The notes: generated by a model from the sequence alone, not told the origin. A stretch of 64,000 nucleotides of DNA from a virus (IMGVR_UViG_3300033072_001087:50816-114815), one strand, 5' to 3'; shown: positions 10,376-54,663, counted from the stretch's first letter. Translations and numbers: made by a program.

Positions 10376-10926
10376 GTGCAAGCGCGTTAGAGCAGACATT
10401 CTCGTTGTACTGGCAGACGCATTATCCCGATGCGCCGCAGCCGCGACGAGAATACCTCTTCCATCCACAGATGGATTATCGTTTCGATTTTGCGTGGCGC
10501 GATCATTTGGTCGCGCTTGAGATTCAGGGCGGCGCGTTCACAGGCGGTAAGCACGGACGCGGCAACGGGCTAACTTCCGATTTCAAGAAAAATAATGCCG
10601 CTATTGCGTTGGGCTGGCGCATTATCTACGCCTCAAGCCCAATGCTGCGTGGCGTTGCAATTACCGAACTCGGCGAGATTATCGCAGATCTGGTTTGGAC
10701 TCCCTTCTCAATTGCTGATTTGGATCGTTCGCGTTGGACAGCCGTCATTCGCAATCTTAAGCCTAAAGACAGCGAGATGATGCGGGGAATTTGCGTTCAA
10801 CGCGTGAGTGCAGGTAAGTACACTGTTGAGAAAAATGGACTCAACCGGGTGTTTACCAAAAAGAAGCTCAAGCTGCACGAGCTTCAAAGCGGCGTATTGG
10901 ACTATATACTAGGCGATCAACCATGA
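10372..10926 (+). CDS. DUF559 / Vsr-like PD-(D/E)xK endonuclease-domain protein.
   Basis: YRFDFAWRDHLVALEIQGG resembles the DUF559 core (RxDF...LaIEvDG). Confidence 0.4.
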   Translation: MSASALEQTFSLYWQTHYPDAPQPRREYLFHPQMDYRFDFAWRDHLVALEIQGGAFTGGKHGRGNGLTSDFKKNNAAIALGWRIIYASSPMLRGVAITELGEIIADLVWTPFSIADLDRSRWTAVIRNLKPKDSEMMRGICVQRVSAGKYTVEKNGLNRVFTKKKLKLHELQSGVLDYILGDQP

Positions 10927-12122
10927 AAATCCTCTTCTACACCCCGACAGTCGGGCGCGGCGGCGTACATCGCGTCGTGGAAACCGTCTTGGCGCAAATT
11001 GTCAAACAGTATCCACAGCACACCTATCATGCTTTAGGGCAGCGCTACAACGAAGTTGGCGATAAAGTCAAATATCCGTGTGCGCTTACACAGATTCGCC
11101 CGGTCAAGAAGCTGCCAGATCACCCGGAACAATTCAAGTTCTTACTCGACAACGCGGACGTGTTTTATCAGCACTTAGCCGAAATTGCGCCCAAGTACGA
11201 TCTGATTTACGCGCCGTCGATCTGGTGGGGGCTTCCGAAAGGGGAGTGGGAGATCACTACGCCGTTGGTTGCGACTATCCCCGATTTCGCTTTCGACATC
11301 ATGAATATGGGGTCGATTGCGCAGCACTTTCGATCGGTGATCCGAAAACTTGGCGAATTCAGCAACACACTCGTCGTCCACAGCCGCTATTGGCAGCAGC
11401 ACGCGCAGCAAACCTACGGCACTCAAAACATCGAAGTTATCGAACATACGCGTGATTTCCTGAGTAAATCGTTCGATTACTCGTTCGCGGAAGGCGTACG
11501 GGTAAGAGAGAAATACGGGCTGCCGAACGAATATGTCTTGGCGTTTCATTGCTATGGACACAAAGACCCGATCACGATTTTGCACGGGCAGTTGTATGCG
11601 CGTTCGCGCTCGCCGTATGTGCCGCCATTGGTGATCGCCGGACTTGAAACCGAACAATACGTAGAGGGCGCGCCCATAAAAGGCGGAGCCGAGTCTCACG
11701 TACATGAGGTTCGACGAGCTATTCGCGAGATTAAGGCGACGCTTGGGCGCGACTTGTGGATCCTTGGCAAGTTACCGGATGAGGATATTGGCGGCTTATA
11801 CGCGATGGCGATGTGTGCGGTTTCCGCGTCGGTCTCGGAGGGCGACTTGCCGGGAACTGCGTTTGAGGCAATTGAGTCGCGCACGCCGTTCATTTGTTCC
11901 GATTTTCCGATTTTCACCGAAAAGCTGGGTGAAGACTGCGCGTGGATTTTCCCGCGCCGCAATGCGAACAAGTACGGGCAAGCGCTGATCGAGTGCGTCG
12001 AAAATCGCGAAGAAGCGCTTCGCCGTGTCAACAATGCACTAGAGCGTACCGGTAAGCGCTCGGTAAAAGACGTGGCAGCCGAGTACATGACTCTATTTGA
12101 AAAGGCGGTCAGTGATGTATAG
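10923..12122 (+). CDS. Glycosyltransferase family 1 (GT4-type).
   Basis: N-terminal MKILFYTPTVGRGGVHRVV (GT4 N-domain) and C-terminal E..GTAFEAIESRTPFICSD (E-x7-E-like) motif. Confidence 0.75.
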   Translation: MKILFYTPTVGRGGVHRVVETVLAQIVKQYPQHTYHALGQRYNEVGDKVKYPCALTQIRPVKKLPDHPEQFKFLLDNADVFYQHLAEIAPKYDLIYAPSIWWGLPKGEWEITTPLVATIPDFAFDIMNMGSIAQHFRSVIRKLGEFSNTLVVHSRYWQQHAQQTYGTQNIEVIEHTRDFLSKSFDYSFAEGVRVREKYGLPNEYVLAFHCYGHKDPITILHGQLYARSRSPYVPPLVIAGLETEQYVEGAPIKGGAESHVHEVRRAIREIKATLGRDLWILGKLPDEDIGGLYAMAMCAVSASVSEGDLPGTAFEAIESRTPFICSDFPIFTEKLGEDCAWIFPRRNANKYGQALIECVENREEALRRVNNALERTGKRSVKDVAAEYMTLFEKAVSDV

Positions 12123-13092
12123 GGTAGCGGTTACAGGCGTCGGCGGCGGCTGTGGACAGGCGATTGTCAAGGCGCTGCGCATGTCGAAACTCCCGTTGGA
12201 AATTTTTAAGGTAGACATCACCCCATTATCGGCTGGATTGTTTTTCAGTGATGCAGGTTTAAGCGCGGTGCTTCCCGCGCCGGAAAAGTCGCTGACGGAG
12301 TGGGAACAGTTCATCGACGAGTTCGGCATTGATGCGATCATTCCGGGTTCGGATCACGATTTGCTGCCGTTGTCGATCGCCTTCTCGCGGTCGGTCGCGT
12401 TGGTAGCAAAACCATCGTTTGTTCGGATCGCGAATGATAAGGCTGAAACATATCGTACCGGTATTTATGCAATTCCGTCGATTTACGCGGCCGCAAATAC
12501 CGATGACATCCTTGCCTTTGCCGAAGCGCACGGCTTTCCGCTGATCGTTAAACCGCGCAACGGAATGACATCGCGCGGTGTTTCGCTGGTCAACGATCTA
12601 GAGGAACTGCTGTTTTACTGGAAGCACACAGCCAATCCGATTGTACAAAAGTACATCGACGGCGATGAATACACTTGCGCGGTCTATTTTTCACGTAGAG
12701 GCGAACCGGTCGCATTCTTCCAGATGCGGCGCTGGTTATATGCAGGATCGACTTATCGCGCGGAAGTGACGCATCACCCCATTGTTGAAGAATTTATGCG
12801 CTGCACGGCGGTTGCTTTGCAGCGGTATCGTCCGACCGGCCCAGTGAATTTGCAAATGCGATTGGACGCCAATAACACACCACATCTACTGGAAATCAAT
12901 GCGCGTTGTTCGGGTTCGACCGCAATGCGCGCGCATTTTGGCTACAACGAGCCAGAGATGCTGCTGCGTGAATATTGCGCAGGTGAAGACATCGAAATGC
13001 CAAAAACGCGAGATGGGGTCGCGATGCGTTATTGGGATGAATTGTACGTTGATAACGCGACGATCGAGGACATCAAAGGATTCAACCGGTGA
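12115..13092 (+). CDS. ATP-grasp domain enzyme.
   Basis: FPLIVKPRNGMTSRGVSLV and LEINARCSGST are ATP-grasp signatures. The ATG at 12115 overlaps the GT stop codon. Confidence 0.7.
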   Translation: MYRVAVTGVGGGCGQAIVKALRMSKLPLEIFKVDITPLSAGLFFSDAGLSAVLPAPEKSLTEWEQFIDEFGIDAIIPGSDHDLLPLSIAFSRSVALVAKPSFVRIANDKAETYRTGIYAIPSIYAAANTDDILAFAEAHGFPLIVKPRNGMTSRGVSLVNDLEELLFYWKHTANPIVQKYIDGDEYTCAVYFSRRGEPVAFFQMRRWLYAGSTYRAEVTHHPIVEEFMRCTAVALQRYRPTGPVNLQMRLDANNTPHLLEINARCSGSTAMRAHFGYNEPEMLLREYCAGEDIEMPKTRDGVAMRYWDELYVDNATIEDIKGFNR

Positions 13093-13994
13093 AAATCTTA
13101 GTGACAGGCGGAGCCGGGTACGTTGGCTCTGTATTAATTGGGGATATGCTCAATCTTGGTTACTCGGTGGTCTGTTATGATCGACTTGATCACGGAATAT
13201 CCCCGATTGCGGGGTATCTAGAACACCCGAATTTTGCGCTAATTGTCGATGACATCCGGCGCGGCTACGCGCTGCAGCAAGCGCTTTTGAAAGCGGATGC
13301 GGTCATTCATTTGGCTGCGCTGGTGGGGTATCCGATTTGTGAGCAATCACCGAAGGAGGCCGAAGGCATTAACCTTTTCGGATCGATCATGCTCAATGAG
13401 TCGCGATCGAAACATCAGCGTGTAATCTACGCGAGTACCGAGAGCGTTTACGGTGGCGTCAAAAATGCCGATAATGGCATATTGCACGAGTGGATGCAGA
13501 CCGATCCGCATTCAGTGTATGCGCGCACGAAATTGGACTCGGAATCCCCATTTTTGGATAAGGGGAATGCGGTTGTGTTTCGTTTCGCCACCGGATATGG
13601 GTTATCACCAAGAATGCGCGCTGATACGATGGTCAATGATTTTACCCGCCAGATTGTAAGGTCTGGAACGCTGTCGTTGTATGAGCCAAATGTATTGCGG
13701 TCGTTTGTTCATGTGCGGCAAATGGCGCGTGTTCTCCTACATGGACTTGGTGCATTTGAGGGATTATACAACGTTAGCGAGATCGGACTGCGCAAAGAAG
13801 CGTTGGTCAAGAAAATAATCGATCAAGTCGGCTACGGGCATGTAACCTATGGAGAGGGTGCGGATCTAGAGATGCGCGACTACTTCATGGATTGCAGCAG
13901 ACTACGCGAAAGTGGATTTGAGTTTCAGCCGATCCACATGGAATCGGCGATTAAAGCGATGGCGAGGTACTTTACACATGATACCGCTTGCTAA
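13089..13994 (+). CDS. NAD-dependent epimerase/dehydratase (SDR family).
   Basis: MKILVTGGAGYVGSVL Rossmann motif plus a YxxxK-type region. GTGA overlap with the upstream gene. Confidence 0.8.
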   Translation: MKILVTGGAGYVGSVLIGDMLNLGYSVVCYDRLDHGISPIAGYLEHPNFALIVDDIRRGYALQQALLKADAVIHLAALVGYPICEQSPKEAEGINLFGSIMLNESRSKHQRVIYASTESVYGGVKNADNGILHEWMQTDPHSVYARTKLDSESPFLDKGNAVVFRFATGYGLSPRMRADTMVNDFTRQIVRSGTLSLYEPNVLRSFVHVRQMARVLLHGLGAFEGLYNVSEIGLRKEALVKKIIDQVGYGHVTYGEGADLEMRDYFMDCSRLRESGFEFQPIHMESAIKAMARYFTHDTAC

Positions 13995-15063
13995 TCCAGA
14001 CATCACCAAAGTCGAACGCCGTCATGTCCTGCAGGCGCTTTGGTCAAACACCATTTCCGGCACGGGTCCACAAATTCGTGAATTTGAGGCGGCATGGGAA
14101 CAGCGCAGCGGGCGCAAACGCGCTTTCGCGGTGAGCAATGGCACCGTAGCGCTGGAGATCGCACTGCAAGCCATCGGCATTGGACCGGGGGATGAAGTAA
14201 TTGTTCCAGCATTGACATTCGCCGCGCCTGCTGCGGCGGTGCGCAGACTTGGAGCGACTCCGGTGTTTGCGGATGTTGGGGTGGATGCTGTAATCAACGT
14301 GCTATCGGTCGCCGAGCGAATTACCGAAAAGACGCGCGCAATCATCGCCGTCGATACGCTTGGCAACATCCCTGACTACAATGCGTTGATGGATCTGGCC
14401 TTCTATTACGGACTGACCGTCATCGAAGACGCGGCTGAAGCACATGGATCGAGTCGTTTGGGAAAACTCAGCGGAACCTTCGGACACATCTCGACCTTTT
14501 CTTTCCACGCCAACAAAACCATCACGACGGGCGAGGGCGGCATGATTCTACTAGACGACGACGACACGATCGGAGTCATTGAATTGATCCGCAATCATGG
14601 CATGAGAAAGCCATATATCCATGAAGTCGTCGGAACAAACGGTCGAATGACGAGCCTGACTGCGGCCCTCGGTATCGGGCAAATGCAGCGCTGGGACGAA
14701 ATCATGCAGCGTCGCAAAGAGATCGATCGCGCTTATGATGCTGTGCTACCAAGCGTGTATTATTCACTGCCCATATCGCCTAATACTTCCAGAATTGTGT
14801 GGCTGAAAACGATTTGCGTTCGGGATGAACATCACGACGGATTGCGCGATCGAATCGTCCACCGACTGCGGGAAGCGCAAATCGACGCGCGCGCCATCTG
14901 GCCGCCGTTGACCGGGCTGAAACCGTATCAGTCGGAGCCGCTGCCGGTTGCTGAAATCGTGAGCGGGAATTCGTTCTGGCTGCCCACCTATAATACATTG
15001 GGTGATGATGATATTTACCGGATTGGAGAGGAATTGAGGATCGCTTATGAACGAGAGAATTGA
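13978..15063 (+). CDS. DegT/DnrJ/EryC1/StrS-family PLP-dependent sugar aminotransferase.
   Basis: Motifs VIEDAAEAHGS and FSFHANKTITTGEGG (the PLP lysine region) are typical of DegT aminotransferases. Confidence 0.8.
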   Translation: MIPLANPDITKVERRHVLQALWSNTISGTGPQIREFEAAWEQRSGRKRAFAVSNGTVALEIALQAIGIGPGDEVIVPALTFAAPAAAVRRLGATPVFADVGVDAVINVLSVAERITEKTRAIIAVDTLGNIPDYNALMDLAFYYGLTVIEDAAEAHGSSRLGKLSGTFGHISTFSFHANKTITTGEGGMILLDDDDTIGVIELIRNHGMRKPYIHEVVGTNGRMTSLTAALGIGQMQRWDEIMQRRKEIDRAYDAVLPSVYYSLPISPNTSRIVWLKTICVRDEHHDGLRDRIVHRLREAQIDARAIWPPLTGLKPYQSEPLPVAEIVSGNSFWLPTYNTLGDDDIYRIGEELRIAYEREN

Positions 15064-18233: not shown

Positions 18234-19247
18234 ATGAACATCTTCGCGCACACATGGGAACTTGCCGACAGCTATGGAAGGCTTGCCATTGAAACCGCAG
18301 ACGCCATTGAGCGCGTCTGCGGCGTGCAGGTTAATCGGGTCGGCGAACACAAACTTAACAAGCCAATCAAGCCCATGTTTGGCGGGGTTCTGACGGCGTA
18401 TCCGACGCAGTTTTGGAAGTACGGCCCGTTGTCGGAATTTGGAACACGAGTTGCGCTGACGATGTTTGAGTCAGACGCGCTGCCGATGGATTGGATCGAT
18501 CCGTTAAATGGTTGCGATACGGTAATTGTGCCGTCTAAGTGGCTGGTGGACGTATTTAAGTCCAGCGGGGTAACGAAGCCGGTATACGCGGAATCCATCG
18601 GAGTGAGCAGCGCGTTTCGATATGTCAAACGCAAGTCGAGTCCGGTGTTTAAGTTCTTGGCGATCGGCGATCACGCGGGTCGTAAGGGCGTGCATGATGT
18701 CCTATTCGAGTTCGTCCGGGCTTTCGGGGATCGGGATGATGTGCATCTATTCATCAAGACGCGCCACGCAACAATGGCGGGGTTTATGAACAAAAACATC
18801 ACGTTGATCAACGAAGAACTGAACGACGCGGATATGGCACGGCTGTATTGGGAATGTGACTGCATGGTGTTCCCGACGAAAGGTGAAGGGTTCGGGCTTC
18901 CGCCGCGCGAGTTTGCGGCGACCGGTGGAATCGCGCTGGTCACGAATTGGGGCGGCACGGCAGATGACATCGAACGTTGGGGAATACCGTTGCCATACAC
19001 GCTGGAAAGCGCGTGGGCGGGCGGCAAATTCGAAGGTATTGGGCGTTGGGCGCAGGTAGATCGCGTCCATTTGCGCACGCTGATGCAGTGGGTAGCGGCA
19101 ATGCCGTATGCTGCACGAATGGCGCTTGGCGCGGCATACGCTGAGAATGTCGCAGAGATGTACACATGGGATCGGTTCGGCAAGCGCGTTTACGAGATAT
19201 GGAGTGAGGCAAATGCCAACAGCCACACAGTACGCGCGGGTGCGTAG
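18234..19247 (+). CDS. Glycosyltransferase family 1 (GT4-type), second copy.
   Basis: FPTKGEGFGLPPREFAATGGIALVTNWGG is the GT4 C-terminal EX7E-type motif. Starts 3 nt after the capsid gene stop. Confidence 0.65.
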   Translation: MNIFAHTWELADSYGRLAIETADAIERVCGVQVNRVGEHKLNKPIKPMFGGVLTAYPTQFWKYGPLSEFGTRVALTMFESDALPMDWIDPLNGCDTVIVPSKWLVDVFKSSGVTKPVYAESIGVSSAFRYVKRKSSPVFKFLAIGDHAGRKGVHDVLFEFVRAFGDRDDVHLFIKTRHATMAGFMNKNITLINEELNDADMARLYWECDCMVFPTKGEGFGLPPREFAATGGIALVTNWGGTADDIERWGIPLPYTLESAWAGGKFEGIGRWAQVDRVHLRTLMQWVAAMPYAARMALGAAYAENVAEMYTWDRFGKRVYEIWSEANANSHTVRAGA

Positions 19248-32787: not shown

Positions 32788-33180
32788 ATGGCAGCAAGTC
32801 CAGAATTCGCAACCAATCCGGTTGTCGGAATGGCGCAGGTATCCACCGCCAATACGAACCGTGATGGAACGGGAACAGTCGTAGATGTACTGACTGGCGG
32901 CAGTAATGGGACGCTGATCAACAAGGTCAGAATTCAAGCGGTGGGAACGACGACCGCTGGCGTAATTCGTTTGTACCTGTATGATGGAACAAACACGCGA
33001 CTGATGAAAGAAATTCTTGTGACTGCGAAAACACCAAGCACGACAGTGGAAGCGTGGTCTACAACAGTCATGTTCAGCGGATATGACTTGCTTGTTTTGC
33101 CGAGCGCCTCGTGGGTCTTGAAGGCTTCTACCCACAACGCGGAAACCTTTAATATCTTCGCGGTAGGGGCTGAGCTGTGA
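32788..33180 (+). CDS. Hypothetical tail-fibre-associated protein.
   Basis: Position. Gly/Thr-rich. Confidence 0.3.
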   Translation: MAASPEFATNPVVGMAQVSTANTNRDGTGTVVDVLTGGSNGTLINKVRIQAVGTTTAGVIRLYLYDGTNTRLMKEILVTAKTPSTTVEAWSTTVMFSGYDLLVLPSASWVLKASTHNAETFNIFAVGAEL

Positions 33181-33602
33181 ACGGCGGGGTGATGGGATTT
33201 CCGAGCGGATTGGGGGGCGATATTCCAATCTCGTTCATGGCGCTCTTTTCAGGCACGCCAAACCTAAGCGCTTCAGTTCAACGGATGAACTTTCAAACCG
33301 TCATTCACGACGTTTACGGCGTCTATGACGCCGCGAATTCGCGTTTCAATGTGACACTGAGTGGTGTGTACTACATTTTCTTTAACGTCGCATCGAACAG
33401 CGGACCGGGAAAATACATTCGCTTTTATATCAATGGCGTTGATATTTTCCCAGCCATGATTGCTTTCGGCACGGTGGGAAATTTCAATCTCGGCATTTTA
33501 CACTATCTCCAAGCAGGGGATTACGTAGAGGTTTGGGGCGCTGCTGACAGCAACGCAGCAATGATCGGTTGGGGTAATTTTGGCGCGTTTATGGTGAGGT
33601 AG
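33177..33602 (+). CDS. C1q/TNF-like domain protein (putative receptor-binding tip).
   Basis: FSGT...FNVTLSGVYYIFFNVAS...YIRFYINGV...LQAGDYVEVW follows the C1q jelly-roll consensus (F.A.....G.Y.F.........L..GD.V.v). Confidence 0.45.
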   Translation: MNGGVMGFPSGLGGDIPISFMALFSGTPNLSASVQRMNFQTVIHDVYGVYDAANSRFNVTLSGVYYIFFNVASNSGPGKYIRFYINGVDIFPAMIAFGTVGNFNLGILHYLQAGDYVEVWGAADSNAAMIGWGNFGAFMVR

Positions 33603-34623: not shown

Positions 34624-34986
34624 TTGGAAACTAACGGAACGAAGCGCGCGATTGCAACTATCTTTGGGTTGGCGATGGCACTTTTTGGTGCTTACATGCT
34701 CTCCATTCCGGAGTCATTAAAGCTCGGATCGCTGGCGCTGATTGTATCGCTGATCGGCGCGACTGGATATACGCTCATTGCCTTAGTGTTTATGCTGTAC
34801 GGGGTTATCTTAATTTTGCGTCGTCCGGCAAGGACGCCGATGTTCCTTCTTCTTACTACGCCTTATTCGCTTTACATCCTTTTCACAATCTTTGGTACTC
34901 TCCTCAACAATGGGCCGCTGCATGTGGGCTATTGGTTCGGGGCGCTTTACTTCGCGATTTGCATAGCATATTGGATGGCAGATTAA
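34624..34986 (+). CDS. Small 4-TM membrane protein (possible holin).
   Basis: Four hydrophobic segments in 120 aa. Confidence 0.3.
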   Translation: METNGTKRAIATIFGLAMALFGAYMLSIPESLKLGSLALIVSLIGATGYTLIALVFMLYGVILILRRPARTPMFLLLTTPYSLYILFTIFGTLLNNGPLHVGYWFGALYFAICIAYWMAD

Positions 34987-35619
34987 ATGACACCAGATCA
35001 ACTATTGCTTTTACTTTTTACAACGCTCGCCTCAATTATTACCTTCTTTTTGAGCCGCACGCGCAATTCAGCGCGTGCGCAAGAGTTCGTGCAAAAGTAT
35101 GCCGAAGAGAGCGATCGAAAGATCGAGGCGTTAGGGGCGGCGCTTGAAGACCAGCGCAAAGAGAATGTACGTCTGAAGGCGGAAGTCGAACACTTGAAAG
35201 ATGACAAAACGTTATCCGAAGGCATCATTGAGGACTTGCGTAAAGGCAAAGAGTCGCAAGAGGCGCGTATCGTCACACTAGAAAAGCAATTTGTAGATGT
35301 TCAAAACGAACGTGAAATCGAAAAAGCTAACTACAAACGGGACATCGACGCGCTGCGTCAAAAACTGGAAAAAACCGAGCGTGACTTGGCAGTTGTGCAA
35401 TCTGAGCGTAAGCAGCTGGCAACCGAGCGCGATGAACTGCTCAAGCGTGTTTCTGAGATCGAAACATTGGCGGAACGGCGCGCGGTCGAATTGGACGACA
35501 TGAAAAAGCGCCTTGAGACCGAACGCGTTGTGTTCAAAGAGTTCATTGAGCCGACCATCAATGACCTCTTTAAAACCATGAAAGACGCCGTAAATTCGGC
35601 AGTTAGGAATGAGGAATGA
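34987..35619 (+). CDS. N-terminal TM plus coiled-coil protein.
   Basis: TM segment followed by a long heptad coiled coil. Confidence 0.3.
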   Translation: MTPDQLLLLLFTTLASIITFFLSRTRNSARAQEFVQKYAEESDRKIEALGAALEDQRKENVRLKAEVEHLKDDKTLSEGIIEDLRKGKESQEARIVTLEKQFVDVQNEREIEKANYKRDIDALRQKLEKTERDLAVVQSERKQLATERDELLKRVSEIETLAERRAVELDDMKKRLETERVVFKEFIEPTINDLFKTMKDAVNSAVRNEE

Positions 35620-35963
35620 ATACCGAAACCCTGCTCATCATCATCACGATCGTCGTCGTTGGCGCGATCTTGGCGTATCTCCAGCGCAAGGCGCTGACGG
35701 ATGCGATTATCGAAATTGTCGAGAATCAGGACTTGGTGTCGAACATCGAGACCGTTGTCGAACAACAGCCGCAGGCAACACAAGATTTGGTCGCCGTCCT
35801 TCAACGTCAGCTTACCTTGATCGAAGGACTGGTTCGCGGTGCAGGCTTAATCGATACTCCTATTGGACGCGTCATTGATAAGATTGAGGACTCGGCACGC
35901 GAAATTACGGACGCCAATGGAGCCGAAAAGCCAAAAGAAGATCCTGAGACTCCGGCTGGTTAG
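35616..35963 (+). CDS. N-terminal TM plus helical protein.
   Basis: LLIIITIVVVGAILAYL TM segment, then helical. Confidence 0.3.
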   Translation: MNTETLLIIITIVVVGAILAYLQRKALTDAIIEIVENQDLVSNIETVVEQQPQATQDLVAVLQRQLTLIEGLVRGAGLIDTPIGRVIDKIEDSAREITDANGAEKPKEDPETPAG

Positions 35964-39636: not shown

Positions 39637-40170
39637 ATGAAAAGGTTCATGCAGCGTTACGCCGAAGGACGCACTTGGTTCGCTTTGTTTACGCGTGATA
39701 GCGACAGCCCACAGCCCTTTGCCATTGTTGATATACGCGACTCTGCGCTCTTGCGTAACTTCTTTTCGCGTGCATTTTCGCAGTATAACCACCGACTGAT
39801 TTCAGATTCGCTGATGCACTACATTGAACAGAGTGAATGGGATCGGCAAGGCTATTTTGACGCCATTATCCGCGTCGGTCGCCGCCACCCAAGTCGATCA
39901 CAAATGTTCCTACTGTCCTATGCGGCAACCCATACGGGATGGTTTCGCTTTCCCGAAGAAATGCGCGCCGACGTTTCCACTAAGAGCCTGTTTGTCTGCA
40001 CGGAACGGGGTTGGATGGCATGGAACGATGGCAACTATCGCATTACATCGGAAGGGCGTCGCGTCCTAAGAAATGCAATCCTAGATGAACGAGATCGAGA
40101 AAAATCAAGCCGGGATAAACGCCGCGCTCGGCAAAATCGCCAACGCGGCGGCGCAGGCGACAGCACTTGA
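39637..40170 (+). CDS. Hypothetical protein with basic C-terminal tail.
   Basis: 177-aa ORF. C-terminus RDKRRARQNRQRGG. Confidence 0.35.
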   Translation: MKRFMQRYAEGRTWFALFTRDSDSPQPFAIVDIRDSALLRNFFSRAFSQYNHRLISDSLMHYIEQSEWDRQGYFDAIIRVGRRHPSRSQMFLLSYAATHTGWFRFPEEMRADVSTKSLFVCTERGWMAWNDGNYRITSEGRRVLRNAILDERDREKSSRDKRRARQNRQRGGAGDST

Positions 40171-41080
40171 CACCTACAAATTAGACCTTGCCCCAAATAC
40201 ATTGGATCGTCAACGGCGCGATTTGTCGCTCTTTGCGGATTACTTGATGGGAAAAGGGATGCGCGTCGGCGATCTGTTCAACAGCGCCGAGGCGTGGCGT
40301 GGTATTACGTGGGGATTGGTCAAGGGGTTCGGGTTGTGGATGCAGCACAAGGGATACGCGTTGGGTTCGGTTGCGGTTAGATTTGCAACCGTCAAGCGCT
40401 ATGCCGCGCTTGCTGTACAATCTGGAATAATCGACGCAAATGAGGGCGCATTGATTAAATCCTTGCGCCCCTTTACGAACACACGCAATGTCGATGCAAA
40501 ACGCGCCAGAACACGTCTGGGCGCGAAAAAAGCCCATTCTACAGACTTGACGTTAGAGCAGCGAAAAACCCTCAAAGAACGCGCCTCCTCTACCCCACAA
40601 AGCGCGTGTTACGCCCTGCTCATGTGTTTACTTCTTGATCACGGTCTTAGAGTATCGGAGGTCATTCTGCTTACTGACGCGAACGTAGACACTACCCTGT
40701 GGACTCTCAGTTTCTATCGTCCAAAGGTTGATCGTCACGATATTCACCGCATGACGCAAGACACAATCCATGCTTACTTAGCCTACAAACCGTTTATAAT
40801 AGAAGGCGAGAAGCTGCTGCGTCAATCAGAACGCGGCGGCGCATTAGGCAAGCCCGGATTAACGCGTGGCGGCGTCGAACAAATCGTCAAACGACTTGGG
40901 AAAAACATCGGGGTCCCATCGCTCTCGCCCCATGATTGTCGGCATTCTTGGGCAACAGAATACGAGAAGAAACACACGCCGTTTGAACTGCGCGACGCAG
41001 GGGGCTGGAACAGCTTGGATATGCCAAATCGCTATGTCAACCGAAAACGAATCAGCAATCAAGGAGAGGACTTGGAATAA
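40085..41080 (+). CDS. Tyrosine recombinase / phage integrase.
   Basis: C-terminal catalytic region HDCRHSWATEY...GGWNSLDMPNRYV (R..H..R..Y). N-terminal SAM-like core-binding region. The true start may be downstream of 40085. Confidence 0.8.
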   Translation: MNEIEKNQAGINAALGKIANAAAQATALDTYKLDLAPNTLDRQRRDLSLFADYLMGKGMRVGDLFNSAEAWRGITWGLVKGFGLWMQHKGYALGSVAVRFATVKRYAALAVQSGIIDANEGALIKSLRPFTNTRNVDAKRARTRLGAKKAHSTDLTLEQRKTLKERASSTPQSACYALLMCLLLDHGLRVSEVILLTDANVDTTLWTLSFYRPKVDRHDIHRMTQDTIHAYLAYKPFIIEGEKLLRQSERGGALGKPGLTRGGVEQIVKRLGKNIGVPSLSPHDCRHSWATEYEKKHTPFELRDAGGWNSLDMPNRYVNRKRISNQGEDLE

Positions 41081-42285
41081 TGTTTGGCGTGAATATACTG
41101 GCGCAATTCCTCAAAGATCGAAATCGCGCCATTGACTTTGTGTACGATCTCAAGCCCAATGCGCTGTTGGTGATGGACGATCGACAGCTGGCATTAGATT
41201 TAGCGTTTTCGCCAAAACTGCCAACGACGACGGTTGTTTACCGCGCCTACGATCCACACGACGATTCGTGGCATCTAAGAAACAGCGCGAGCGAGATATG
41301 GAACTGGCACAAACGCTTCGCGCATCCGAAACTCGTCATGCAGATCTGGAACGAGCCGTCTGGATACGTGAACGTCGAAGCGTTGGTCGAAAAAGCGGTT
41401 GACATTGTGCATATGGCTTCTGCAGACAACTTAAGAGTGGTCATGCCGATGTGGGGCGTCGGACATCCCGATAACAAGTTGATCAGCAGTGGGGTTTTAG
41501 ATCCGCTGATCGAAACGCTCTACCAACACCCGGAACAGTATTACGGCGTTCATGAATACGCCAGAACATCCATTGCAGAAGCGATTGACGAAGACCATGT
41601 ACTGCGCTGTGTCGCTTTCTTGGAACGCGCAAAAAAGATCGGCTGCCCGATTGCGGCTCAGCGCATCATCGTCGGCGAATTTGGGCGTGACTACATGGGG
41701 CGCTATGAAGATGGCTATCGCGATAACATGACCAGCGAGGGCTATGCTGTCATGCACCGGAGTGCTGAAGAAGCATACCGCGCCTACGGCATCAACAAGG
41801 TTATTACGTTTTGCATGGGCAACGGCGGCGGCAATCGGTGGGAGAAGTTCAATATCGAAGGAGACGAGATCGTGCAAGACGCGCTTATCGACATCAACAC
41901 AAAATCAATCACGGAGCCCCCACCTGCGGTCGAACCGCCGGTTGAATCAAAGAAGTATTACGGCATCATTCAAACCACTGCTCTACGCGTGAATGTCAGA
42001 GAAGCCCCTTCCCTCAACGCGAAGGTTGTAACAACAGTCACGGGCGGAAATGTTGTCGAATACATGCCGGACTCGGTTGTGATGGATGAGAATGGGCGCG
42101 CATGGTTCATGCTGATTGAACCGCGCGGCTATCTTGCGTCATGGGCGGCTTGGGTTCAAAGCATTACAAGCGATCAAGGTTCTATCGATCGGATTGCCAA
42201 ACTTAACGATGACATCACGGATGCGCTGACACGCGCCGCAAGCGCTGTTGGCGAGATAAAAGACATACTGAACTCGATCAAGTAG
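41080..42285 (+). CDS. GH5-like glycoside hydrolase domain fused to a C-terminal SH3b domain (candidate lysin or depolymerase).
   Basis: QIWNEPSGY (GH5 NEP acid/base) and IIVGEFGR (GEFG nucleophile-like). C-terminal YYGIIQTTALRVNVREAPSLNAKVVTTVTGGNVVEY...DENGRAWFMLIE resembles bacterial SH3b. Confidence 0.5.
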   Translation: MFGVNILAQFLKDRNRAIDFVYDLKPNALLVMDDRQLALDLAFSPKLPTTTVVYRAYDPHDDSWHLRNSASEIWNWHKRFAHPKLVMQIWNEPSGYVNVEALVEKAVDIVHMASADNLRVVMPMWGVGHPDNKLISSGVLDPLIETLYQHPEQYYGVHEYARTSIAEAIDEDHVLRCVAFLERAKKIGCPIAAQRIIVGEFGRDYMGRYEDGYRDNMTSEGYAVMHRSAEEAYRAYGINKVITFCMGNGGGNRWEKFNIEGDEIVQDALIDINTKSITEPPPAVEPPVESKKYYGIIQTTALRVNVREAPSLNAKVVTTVTGGNVVEYMPDSVVMDENGRAWFMLIEPRGYLASWAAWVQSITSDQGSIDRIAKLNDDITDALTRAASAVGEIKDILNSIK

Positions 42286-42286
42286 C

Positions 42287-42326
42287 GATAGTCCCGGTCA
42301 TGACCGGGACTATCTAATTTTGTTGG
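42287..42326 (+). terminator. Rho-independent terminator.
   Basis: 13-bp perfect stem gatagtcccggtc/gaccgggactatc with a 2-nt loop, followed by taattttgttgg. Confidence 0.75.
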
Positions 42327-42483
42327 TTGAGATGATCCGCGTTCTATGTCCCGTCCCGTTTCTTAAACGCATCCATATCACCAGCCGCAAAATCTCGGTT
42401 AGCTTGAGGCACTTTATCAAGCGGGATTTCACGGGGTCTGTGCGGCACATATTCAAGATCGGAAGGCTTCAAAACTAAGCTGA

Positions 42484-43266: not shown

Positions 43267-44397
43267 CTAACGGTTGAGGCTCATCGGCATGATCACGCAA
43301 ACGAGTCCGTCATAGCTTTCTGGGCGAATCACCACCGGATGCGCCGCGCCGTGAGTCTCCAGAATAATGCGCTCGCTGTCGATGATATTCAGCACGTCGA
43401 TCAAGTAGCGAATGTTATACGCCACTTCCAGCGCTTCCCCTTCGACTCCGGCGTCGATCATGCCCTCACTATCACCGCGTTCGGCGCTGCGTCCCAAGAT
43501 CGATAACTGTCCCGGTTCACTGGGGCTGGCAGGCGGTTGTGCGATGAATCGCGCGCTGAAGTTGTTGTCGCGCGCAAAAATTTCGGCTCGCTTGCATTGA
43601 TTGAGCAGTTCATCGGCATATACCGTTATCGATGTACTGTAGGTTTTTGGAACAATAGCGTTGAAGTCTGGGAATTTACCGCTGATCAATTGCGACGTAA
43701 TGATCGTGCTTTCGTAATAAAACGCCACACCCTCTCGTTCATCGAGCATGGATAGTCCAAGCGGCCGCTCTTCATCGGTAATCACACGCGCTACTTCCGC
43801 TAACGTTCTTGCGGGAATGATCATCGGTTCACTTTCAGCGGACTCGTCAATTTGACTTGTCCGAACTGACAGACGATACCCATCCGCTGAAGTCATTGTC
43901 AGCGCGTTATTGCCGAACTGAGTATAGATGCCACCCAAAACAGGGCGAGAGTCTTCCTTCGCCGCAGCAAAGACTGTTTGCGTAATCATCTGCTTGAATA
44001 CGCCGGATGGTAGTTGTACGGACGCCCCTTTTGTTTCAGGAATCGGAGGGAATTCTGACGCCGCAATGCCCTTGATGTTCGATTTGGTCGTACCACAGCG
44101 GACATTAACCGTTTGCGTTTGCGCGTCAAGTATTAGATCGACTCGTTCAGATGACAGGTTATTGACTAATTCAGCGAATGTCTTAGCGGGAAGCGTAATC
44201 GCGCCGGGAACATCGATTTTCGCACCGACATAGGTTGTGATGCTCATTTCGAGGTTCGTTGCGACGAGTTTGAGGCGGGCATCTTCGGTCATCAACAGCA
44301 CGTTCGCCAAGACCGGCAGAGTCGGACGCGACTCGACAGCTTTGGCGACAATACTTAATCCTCTGGCGAGCTGATCTTGCAAGATTGAAACACGCAT
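43267..44397 (-). CDS. dnaN: DNA polymerase III beta subunit (sliding clamp).
   Basis: 376 aa. N-terminus MRVSILQDQLARGLSIVAKAV...PVLANVLL and the three-domain clamp pattern. Confidence 0.8.
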   Translation of the reverse strand: MRVSILQDQLARGLSIVAKAVESRPTLPVLANVLLMTEDARLKLVATNLEMSITTYVGAKIDVPGAITLPAKTFAELVNNLSSERVDLILDAQTQTVNVRCGTTKSNIKGIAASEFPPIPETKGASVQLPSGVFKQMITQTVFAAAKEDSRPVLGGIYTQFGNNALTMTSADGYRLSVRTSQIDESAESEPMIIPARTLAEVARVITDEERPLGLSMLDEREGVAFYYESTIITSQLISGKFPDFNAIVPKTYSTSITVYADELLNQCKRAEIFARDNNFSARFIAQPPASPSEPGQLSILGRSAERGDSEGMIDAGVEGEALEVAYNIRYLIDVLNIIDSERIILETHGAAHPVVIRPESYDGLVCVIMPMSLNR

Positions 44398-52487: not shown

Positions 52488-53536
52488 TGCCACCACTTCC
52501 AATCGACGCGCGTGATGTTCAGCGGCACAAATTCGCGCTGCCAACCGAGTTCGTCGTACATCACGCGGTCAAAAAGCGCGAACAATTGTTCAGGCTTGTA
52601 CAGCCGCGCGTGCTTGTCCGCCAACGTACATGCCCTGAAGTATTTGACCATCGGTTCGGGCATATCCTGACACGCCCAAAGCATACACTTCGCCGCCATG
52701 TAAATATCGCTGGCAGGTACGGTATCGGTACTCCCAAGCAGCGTTTCGGTCGGATAAAAGTTCTCCCACCGGTCGATCATGTACGAGAACTTCGCGCCCG
52801 CCTCGACCGCGCATGTCCAGTCGATCAGGTAGCCGCGATGCTGTCCGCCGCCACCGATGCCACCGGGTTTGAGCAGGATGTTATCCGGCACTACCGCCCC
52901 GTGCAAGTAGCCAAAGGCGTGCGGGATGGTCAGCGCAGCCAGAACCCGCCGCCAGATCCACGAAATCGCTTTCACAGGAACATGACGATCATAGATGTCA
53001 GCAAGCGTTGTCAGCGAAATCAGTTCATCGCCCTTCACATCATCGCTGTAGGCGAGAATGTGATAGTAGCCGTCGTCGTCCATGTCGCTTTCGACGAGGC
53101 GCGGAATGTACTTGAACGCTTCGCCTTCGTACAACGGCAGCGCGTTGATCCGGTTTAGGATGGCTTCTTCGCGGTCGAACAAGTCTTTGTCGCCGGTGAG
53201 AAGCCGTTTTGTGACCGTCCCATCCGCATTCAACGTGACGGACGCGATTTCGCCGACGCCGAGCATGTGTGAATCATCTTCGACCCACAGCTCATATTTC
53301 GCGTTCAAGTCGGCGATGAAGTCCTCCGCCAGCCCGTACACTTCCTTGTCGCCCATGTGTGCATCGGGGTGATAGGACTTCACAAGCCGCCGCCGAACGT
53401 CGTCAATTTGCGCTTCGACGTTCCCAAAAACCATCGCCGGTGTCGATTGGCGCATCTGTGCGTGCAGTGAACGCAGTTGATCGCGTACGGGCAATTGCTG
53501 AAAAGTTTGCAGGTTCATGTGCGACTCCATTCGCAT
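52484..53536 (-). CDS. J-domain (DnaJ-like) fused to a protein-kinase-like fold.
   Basis: RRRLVKSYHPDAHMGD carries the HPD tripeptide of J-domains. YLHGAVVPDNILL resembles the kinase catalytic loop (HRDLKPENILL, with the Asp replaced), and YLIDWT is DFG-like. Confidence 0.4.
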   Translation of the reverse strand: MRMESHMNLQTFQQLPVRDQLRSLHAQMRQSTPAMVFGNVEAQIDDVRRRLVKSYHPDAHMGDKEVYGLAEDFIADLNAKYELWVEDDSHMLGVGEIASVTLNADGTVTKRLLTGDKDLFDREEAILNRINALPLYEGEAFKYIPRLVESDMDDDGYYHILAYSDDVKGDELISLTTLADIYDRHVPVKAISWIWRRVLAALTIPHAFGYLHGAVVPDNILLKPGGIGGGGQHRGYLIDWTCAVEAGAKFSYMIDRWENFYPTETLLGSTDTVPASDIYMAAKCMLWACQDMPEPMVKYFRACTLADKHARLYKPEQLFALFDRVMYDELGWQREFVPLNITRVDWKWWQ

Positions 53537-54663
53537 ACGCGCCGTCCATGCCCCATGATTTTCACGGGAGCGAATGCGGCGACTTCGATTAGCTCAACCA
53601 ATGACTTCAGCGAGTGTACTTCGATGTAGTCTTTCATTCCGATTCGATCTGTTCCGCGCAAATCGATAACATTCCATAGCTGTTCTGGATTGAATCGATC
53701 AACATGCGACAATGCGATTTCGTGAATGCCGCCCAGAATGTTGTCTGCGGCGTAACGCAGCAGCTTGCGGTCAAGCCAGCCAACGCGCCATGCTCCTTGT
53801 AGTTCCGGTAGTCCGTCGTGATTGTGTCGCTCGACTATTGCCTTACGATCGAGCATATGACTCTCTGACGGGAACGGTCCAACGCCATGCCGCGTGGCAT
53901 AGATGCGGGTTACGCCAACCCGCTTGACCTGTGTGCCGGACGGAATCATCTCCAGAGCGCCTGAAAATGTCGTATCGCTCGACGTGACATATGGGCGATA
54001 GCCGCGATCGCAATCCAACAGCGCTCCTTGTGCGCCTTCAAAGATAACGTGATCAAAGCCGCCGAGTACACTTTCGTCCGAAACGGCGGTCACGACGTTA
54101 TTCAATGCGTCGATCAAATCATCGCCGATTTCCCGATAGAAACTCTCCACCGGACAAATGCGCGCTTCAAGGTACTGCAGCTTCTCATAGACTCTTTGCG
54201 GATCGTTGATCAGATCGCATACGCGCAGCGCCATATCGGGATGGGTTTCTGCCCAGCGCTTCGTGGTGCCTACCCCATTCGCCGTCGTACCGCGCTTGTG
54301 TATGCTGGCGTTGATCAGCGACGTGTACTTGTGATACTCTGTCACGACCAACGCTTGCGGATGAACGATCAGCGCCGGATTTTCACCTAATAGGCGCAGC
54401 CGTTTGTATTCTGCCCACGCCTCGATCGGATCGAAACACACATGCCGACCAAGATACGTGGAAGCGCCCTCAAACGTGCCGCTTCCGAATTGACGGAAGG
54501 TGTGATGGCGAAAATCGTCCGATGTGACGTTGTGCGCAGCGTTCGCGCCACCGTTGTACCGCGCTACCATCTTAGCAGCGTGCTGGCGCGTCAAAAACGC
54601 GGTCGTCATGCCTTTACCTTCGTCGCCGAACCCAAGTCCGGCGACTACCGTTGCGCTTTTCAT
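53515..54663 (-). CDS. Adenylosuccinate synthetase homolog (PurA-like / possibly PurZ-like).
   Basis: GFGDEGKGMTTAFL (GDEGKGK P-loop), YNGGANAAHN (GGxNAGH), IFEGAQGALLDCDRGYRPYVTSSDTT (very close to PurA [25 protein letters not shown]), ATRHGVGPFPSE. At 382 aa it is shorter than bacterial PurA. Confidence 0.75.
   Translation of the reverse strand: MKSATVVAGLGFGDEGKGMTTAFLTRQHAAKMVARYNGGANAAHNVTSDDFRHHTFRQFGSGTFEGASTYLGRHVCFDPIEAWAEYKRLRLLGENPALIVHPQALVVTEYHKYTSLINASIHKRGTTANGVGTTKRWAETHPDMALRVCDLINDPQRVYEKLQYLEARICPVESFYREIGDDLIDALNNVVTAVSDESVLGGFDHVIFEGAQGALLDCDRGYRPYVTSSDTTFSGALEMIPSGTQVKRVGVTRIYATRHGVGPFPSESHMLDRKAIVERHNHDGLPELQGAWRVGWLDRKLLRYAADNILGGIHEIALSHVDRFNPEQLWNVIDLRGTDRIGMKDYIEVHSLKSLVELIEVAAFAPVKIMGHGRRVCEWSRT

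Follow-up and report, generated by a model that had tools for sequence, protein, structure and literature searches.

The open reading frame (ORF) at positions 41080–42285 (+ strand) of the viral sequence IMGVR_UViG_3300033072_001087:50816-114815 encodes a 401-residue protein with an N-terminal barrel resembling glycoside hydrolase clan A (GH-A), an SH3b domain and a C-terminal helix, and is described here as a putative endolysin gene. The window, meaning the whole 64,000-nucleotide stretch that was analysed, comes from a larger genome, with a recorded contig of 114,815 bp, and carries a set of phage structural and replication genes. An earlier note on this DNA had placed an ORF with glycosidase-type catalytic motifs at the same coordinates, and the ORF listing of the window confirmed them exactly, along with the strand and length. 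An identical copy of the protein was detected on two metagenome contigs.

A strong Shine-Dalgarno sequence, AGGAGAGG (41062–41069, +), was read directly from the sequence 10 nt 5′ of the ATG of the lysin gene. Directly upstream lies a tyrosine recombinase (integrase) gene (40085–41080, +; Pfam Phage_integrase 2.5e-14, PHROG integrase 1.2e-16), with its TAA stop codon overlapping the lysin start codon as TAATG (41078–41082). The gene was previously said to be encoded beside the integrase and not with the holin-like genes, and this is indeed the arrangement, with the membrane protein genes located approximately 5 kb upstream. A hairpin resembling an intrinsic terminator follows the lysin stop codon (42287–42324, +), with a 12-bp GC-rich stem (7 GC pairs) and a T-rich tail. 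It lies in a 198-bp intergenic stretch (42286–42483), and a convergent, leftward replication module faces the lysin gene from the other side. The hairpin is a consensus match only, in a region where terminator-like sites are no more numerous than in shuffled sequences, and it is a candidate terminator which may close the rightward late operon. The Shine-Dalgarno sequence, the TAATG coupling and the hairpin after the stop codon together indicate that the lysin gene is the final gene of a rightward transcription unit. The product is thus phage-encoded, has no secretion signal and sits at the end of the late/lysis region, as expected of an endolysin. Within the rightward late operon, the integrase gene itself occupies an unusual site for a phage integrase.

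The N-terminal domain (residues 1–280; 41080–41919, +) was predicted to form a (β/α)8 barrel. The AlphaFold model was built from a 75-sequence alignment (predicted local distance difference test, pLDDT, 92.9; predicted template modelling score, pTM, 0.78) and shows eight alternating strands and helices. It supersedes a mediocre model from a four-sequence alignment (pLDDT 64.8), which gave weak Foldseek matches with GH128, GH5 and GH17 barrels ranked top. All 60 of the best structural neighbours of the barrel are clan GH-A glycosidases, many of them from GH5, so the N-terminal TIM-barrel glycosidase that the earlier note had wished to see checked by structure prediction was recovered in a confident model. 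A fold search of BFVD returned uncharacterised phage proteins as top matches, followed by phage proteins annotated as GH5.

The predicted active site is formed by motifs which align with the NEP, HQY and GEFG motifs of the GH5 enzyme Cel5A. N91-E92-P93 (41350–41358, +) carries the putative acid/base glutamate just past strand β4 (model strand 86–88), H158-E159-Y160 (41551–41559, +) provides a GH-A-type His/Tyr pair on strand β6, and G199-E200-F201-G202 (41674–41685, +) carries the putative nucleophile on strand β7 (model strand 196–203). W254 lies past strand 8 of the model and R55 on the third strand. Conservation was assessed in 147 representatives that had a near-complete N-terminal domain and were mutually ≤50% identical. 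R55, E92, Y160 and E200 are invariant in this set (147/147), and N91, H158, D204 and W254 are each present in 146 of the 147. The conservation of E92, E200 and N91 among sequences this diverged argues that NEP and GEFG are not chance motifs, and their spacing, earlier estimated at about 100 residues, is 108 residues between the two glutamates. With its (β/α)8 fold and its glutamate pair at the ends of β4 (preceded by Asn) and β7, the modelled N-terminal domain is a clan GH-A barrel with a canonical catalytic constellation, although by sequence it is not GH5. It is probably a retaining β-glycosidase, in which E92 would act as the acid/base and E200 as the nucleophile.

The earlier description as GH5-like was therefore upheld at the level of the clan, where many of the GH-A neighbours are GH5 enzymes, but not as sequence membership of GH5. 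A profile of the N-terminal domain searched against the PDB gave only one GH5 enzyme, Cel5A (9p41, E = 0.54), and hhalign against a three-sequence GH5 alignment gave a probability of 7.4% (P = 0.005). PF00150 (Cellulase) was not matched at E ≤ 1 by the window protein, nor at E ≤ 0.01 or 0.001 by any of ~151 relatives. Both alignments (PDB profile and hhalign) place the NEP/HEY/TExG motifs of the family in register on NEP/HQY/GEFG of GH5. Of the residues that may correspond to the GH5 subsite −1 set (Arg, His, Asn-Glu, His, Tyr, Glu, Trp), R55, N91-E92, H158, Y160, E200 and W254 are near-invariant, and the second His (H65) is present in only 76 of 147 sequences. Membership of GH25 was likewise rejected, as neither a PF01183 sequence match nor a GH25 structural match was found. 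Single-sequence searches of Pfam, PHROGs, NCBIfam and the PDB left residues 1–280 unmatched, those of PHROGs and the PDB matching the SH3 part only, to phage lysins. Furthermore, the barrel family has no annotation in Pfam, NCBIfam or PHROGs, and looks like an undescribed family of its own.

The barrel is followed by an SH3b cell-wall-binding domain (residues ~293–362; 41956–42165, +), for which the model shows six to seven strands. Pfam SH3_3 (PF08239) matches residues 304–357 with an E-value of 8.8e-6, its 26.3 bits falling marginally below the gathering score of 27.0, and the family profile matches SH3b domains in lysins of known structure (4krt, E = 6.6e-10; 5d74, 3.7e-6; 2krs, 1.5e-5), in agreement with the C-terminal SH3b reported before. 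SH3b domains typically bind peptidoglycan, and the predicted domain would provide the wall-binding module of an endolysin. The protein ends in a long amphipathic helix (residues 366–400; 42175–42279, +), modelled with block-mean pLDDT of ~79–91 over residues 361–400, which possibly serves in oligomerisation or docking. Similar coiled-coil tails were seen in relatives.

Relatives of the protein were almost entirely missed by a word-indexed protein search, which returned only four; the family came to light when 1.84 billion cluster representatives were searched exhaustively with HMMER, with 2230 matches at E ≤ 1e-3, of which 790 reached E ≤ 1e-10 and 187 reached E ≤ 1e-30. The source names seen for these relatives were all “hypothetical protein”. 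The family was found only in metagenomes. Using tblastn, nothing was detected in 50,697 isolated phage genomes for the window protein or for the relatives P0009 and P0011, family patterns applied to the contigs of 185,579 species-representative genomes matched no relative, and a scan of metagenome contigs added only seven loci. The barrel begins within ten residues of the N-terminus in 139 of the 147 representatives, and an N-terminal signal or transmembrane (TM) segment occurs in none of the 147.

A scan for fusion partners in 152 proteins (~151 of them genuine members) showed that every Pfam domain fused to the barrel is a wall module. These are SH3_3 (66 of the proteins scanned, ~65 of these genuine members), C39-like peptidase (n = 16), M23 (n = 8), Amidase_2 (n = 2; P0015 and P0165) and GH25 (n = 1; P0109), with the usual order being barrel, SH3b and then a second catalytic domain. 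Many members, including the window protein, consist of barrel and SH3b only, without a fused peptidase. A putative GH73 glucosaminidase partner was rejected, as it came from P0112, a non-member which contains SH3 repeats only. The fusion partners point to the cell wall as the target. They also bear on whether the protein could be an auxiliary metabolic glycosidase, acting on environmental or storage polysaccharide and unrelated to lysis, similar to a soil viral GH5 endomannanase. Such roles have been proposed for GH-A enzymes encoded by phages, with a viral GH5 endomannanase cited in bioRxiv 10.1101/2024.12.20.629349, and the phage proteins annotated as GH5 in BFVD have a similar fold. However, the SH3b domain, fusion exclusively to cell-wall hydrolase modules, membrane-protein neighbours (see below), the lack of a secretion signal and the failure of the patterns used to find the family in species-representative genomes make a metabolic role extremely unlikely.

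Two unusual arrangements were observed among the relatives. One protein (P0131, 705 residues) possesses two GH-A barrels in tandem. At another locus (L045; 327–644 and 1664–2632), a full copy of the gene is preceded by a truncated 105-residue barrel N-terminus, a 53-residue TM ORF and a 258-residue zinc-finger-like ORF, and the gene may have been disrupted and duplicated by a mobile element.

All genomic contexts retrieved for the homologs were phage contigs, and in approximately 10 of 14 distinct contexts membrane proteins were encoded within two genes of the homolog or fused to it. In L003, the start of the homolog is overlapped by the gene of a TM-plus-coiled-coil protein and its end by that of a protein with two TM segments. 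The order in both L005 and L006 is homolog, stand-alone M23 or C39-like gene, two-TM protein. Similar arrangements were observed in L010, where a stand-alone M23 or C39-like gene also adjoins the homolog, and in L011, L015, L042 and L043. The separate two-TM gene lies immediately downstream in L003 and one to two genes off in L005 and L006. In P0023 (570 residues; L009 3485–5197, L008 2243–4165), two C-terminal TM segments are found past the SH3b domain, in what looks like a fusion of lysin and membrane protein, and P0094 has three TM segments.

In several contexts, the protein directly upstream of the homolog is one of 180–250 residues with an N-terminal TM segment and a long coiled coil, its stop codon often overlapping the start codon of the homolog (L003 9363–10004; L010 4962–5561; L011 5226–5924; L015 5462–6001; L043 235–978). 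As many of the lysins end in a long helix, residues 366–400 of the window protein included, the terminal helix and the TM-plus-coiled-coil partner might pair up. One possibility is that the helix docks onto this recurrent partner, in which case the lysin would stay anchored to the membrane up to the moment of lysis.

The phage itself encodes three membrane proteins directly after its tail-fibre genes. The first (34624–34986, +) is a 120-residue protein with three to four TM segments in a hydropathy scan and is the best holin candidate. The second (34987–35619, +; 210 residues) has an N-terminal TM segment and a coiled coil, the architecture of the partners preceding the lysin in L003, L010, L011, L015 and L043. 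The third (35616–35963, +; 115 residues) has an N-terminal TM helix. Between this cluster and the lysin gene are a metallophosphoesterase gene, several unknown ORFs and the integrase gene, hence the usual cassette appears to be split by approximately 5 kb. Just upstream of the membrane cluster, a protein of the tail-fibre region (33177–33602, +) contains a C1q/BclA C-terminal-like domain (Pfam C1q, 3.1e-6).

Searches of Pfam, PHROGs and PDB sequences that covered the 64-kb window and 5.8 kb to its left detected no lysin of the lysozyme, amidase or peptidase type, in line with the earlier remark that the window holds no canonical lysin. The Logan contig SRR32380192_10528 (63,988 bp) begins 11.4 kb to the left of the window and reaches position 52609 within it; the rest of the window is on a second contig.

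The host of the phage is probably a bacterium of the Anaerolineae (Chloroflexota), judging from its DNA polymerase III beta-clamp gene (43267–44397, −). The encoded protein is 70–76% identical to clamps from Anaerolineae metagenome-assembled genomes, including Candidatus Flexifilum breve, and all 18 of its genome matches belong to Chloroflexota. The top Anaerolineae clamp loci share no flanking genes with the window and do not look like prophage copies of the region, so the clamp gene was probably acquired from the host lineage, and the sequence comparison suggests that the capture was recent. The terminase failed as a basis for inferring the host, being ~45% identical to those of phages of many phyla, and a capsid-region protein searched for the same purpose gave no match.

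Considering fold, domain partners and genomic context together, we regard it as likely that the gene encodes a holin-dependent endolysin whose catalytic domain represents a new clan GH-A family. Late in infection, a cytoplasmic enzyme without a signal peptide would be produced from the final gene of the rightward operon, and the membrane proteins encoded at 34.6–36 kb would permeabilise the membrane. The enzyme would then reach the wall, where the SH3b domain would bind and the N-terminal barrel would cut a β-glycosidic bond in a wall glycan by the retaining mechanism of clan GH-A glycosidases, E92 serving as the acid/base and E200 as the nucleophile.

Several observations weigh against an endolysin role. 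None of the three membrane proteins encoded at 34624–35963 matched a holin family, no homology to the partner proteins of other phages could be detected for them, and their genes lie ~5 kb upstream of the lysin gene, which is instead translationally coupled to an integrase gene. The genome reaches at least 11.4 kb past the window and may encode a second lysin there, and both phage and host are uncultured. Two relatives also occupy other positions: the homolog in L012 (P0115; 5522–6535) lies between genes for a PD-(D/E)XK nuclease and an HNH endonuclease in a replication module with DNA polymerase A, and that in L014 (P0155; 6001–7554) lies directly past the terminase and portal genes in the head module. 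The latter position would be consistent with a virion-associated lysin or depolymerase, used for penetrating the envelope at infection and not for release, and the C-terminal helix seen in the model could serve to assemble the protein onto a structure. In most of the family, however, the catalytic domain is N-terminal (139 of 147) with no structural or tail-attachment domain, the window gene is outside the tail module, the usual neighbours are small membrane proteins, as for lysis genes, and some members are fused to TM segments. A role in the virion is therefore very unlikely.

The remaining points on the same side as these concern the substrate. To our knowledge, no clan GH-A enzyme cleaves peptidoglycan. 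The Asn preceding the acid/base Glu in GH-A enzymes normally binds the 2-OH of the sugar at subsite −1, and both peptidoglycan sugars carry a 2-acetamido group at that position, which favours a non-peptidoglycan glycan. Moreover, a true peptidoglycan hydrolase (M23, C39-like, Amidase_2 or GH25) is often found in relatives, as a fused domain or a neighbouring gene, so the barrel could be an accessory activity. For an endolysin with this barrel, the bond cleaved could quite possibly be in the peptidoglycan backbone; that it is in another wall polysaccharide of the probable Anaerolineae host is possible, if somewhat doubtful. Chloroflexota are considered monoderm and have a multilayered envelope, for the outer layers of which polysaccharide or protein has been suggested (PMC13319060). 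A lysin that has a wall-binding domain and no spanins suits such an envelope, and a non-peptidoglycan substrate stays plausible.

The same evidence bears on an accessory lysis enzyme, which would depolymerise a non-peptidoglycan polysaccharide of the wall or sheath of the Chloroflexota host, with the peptidoglycan left to another enzyme, either one that escaped recognition or one whose gene lies past the ends of the window. The two would then work together in the manner of mycobacteriophages, where LysB supplements LysA. Besides the GH-A chemistry at the 2-OH and the layered envelope, such a role would fit the pairing of the barrel in relatives with M23, C39-like, Amidase_2 or GH25 modules, whether fused or adjacent, and in particular P0109, which has both the barrel and a GH25 muramidase. 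It would also fit the presence of PslG (4zn2), an exopolysaccharide hydrolase, among the closest folds, and the continuation of the genome past the window. Yet the sequence searched, the window and 5.8 kb to its left, contains no second muralytic gene, many members have the barrel and SH3b only, as does the window protein, and SH3b is a typical peptidoglycan binder. We consider an accessory role unlikely, and return to the protein as the likely endolysin of this phage.

As a putative modular endolysin the protein belongs to a known kind of system, whose catalytic module here is new and unannotated. The GH25 endolysins offer a close parallel, such as Psm of Clostridium phage phiSM101 (4krt), which likewise combines an N-terminal barrel-type glycosidase with a C-terminal SH3_3, and the SH3b parts of the two are detectably homologous. 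Staphylococcal and streptococcal lysins, from phages of monoderm hosts, have two catalytic domains arranged around an SH3b or other wall-binding domain (enzymatically active domain, cell-wall-binding domain, enzymatically active domain). The family shares this layout, with barrel, SH3b and an optional C39-like, M23, Amidase_2 or GH25 domain, whereas the window protein has a single catalytic domain of an undescribed family and a long helix at its end. A C-terminal transmembrane domain is reported for the endolysin of Hafnia phage Enc34 (PMC8943055). In this it resembles the relatives in L008 and L009 (P0023) with two C-terminal TM segments, while the window protein has none and the catalytic folds are unrelated.

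GH5 enzymes, such as the Cel5A endoglucanases (9p41, 3qr3 and 5hos) and the GH5 mannanases, have no significant sequence similarity to the window protein, which differs from them in being phage-encoded, in lacking a signal peptide and in having SH3b and, across the family, peptidoglycan hydrolase modules instead of carbohydrate-binding modules. GH39-type enzymes (Bacteroides GH39, 5jvk; PslG, 4zn2) and GH164 (6t5o) also belong to clan GH-A, with 8–15% identity and no sequence-family match. They are bacterial, periplasmic or secreted enzymes with extra β-sandwich domains and are not phage lysis proteins.

Endolysin catalytic domains form a short, well-catalogued list, on which we found no clan GH-A barrel. 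Indeed, no clan GH-A endolysin was found in the searchable literature, which agrees with the earlier view of the fold as atypical for endolysins. We tentatively propose that the barrel founds a new CAZy-type clan GH-A family specific to phage lysis. It could be either the first retaining glycosidase of the 4/7 superfamily to cut the peptidoglycan backbone, or a sign that lysis of Chloroflexota needs cleavage of a non-peptidoglycan wall glycan. The latter, if true, would reveal an essential envelope polymer in the phylum, and in general the identity of the bond cut would give direct information on the chemistry of the wall in an uncultured group of hosts. The family would also provide a handle on lysis in phages of Chloroflexota, a phylum of filamentous bacteria with poorly understood envelopes that includes wastewater-sludge lineages. 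As hundreds of diverged clusters are unannotated, standard pipelines leave such phages without a recognisable lysin, and naming the family would improve the annotation of uncultured phages. For lysin engineering, the barrel would be a further, new enzymatic module.

Other genes in the window include a set of sugar-modification genes (10923–15063 and 18234–19247, +), which lie in the head module between the portal and the capsid/cement genes. Their Pfam matches comprise a GT4 glycosyltransferase, an ATP-grasp enzyme, an NAD-dependent epimerase/dehydratase and a DegT/DnrJ aminotransferase, with a second glycosyltransferase further on, and they may represent a virion glycosylation cassette. In the replication module, an adenylosuccinate synthase gene (Pfam Adenylsucc_synt; 53515–54663, −) was observed beside the primase and DnaB helicase genes.

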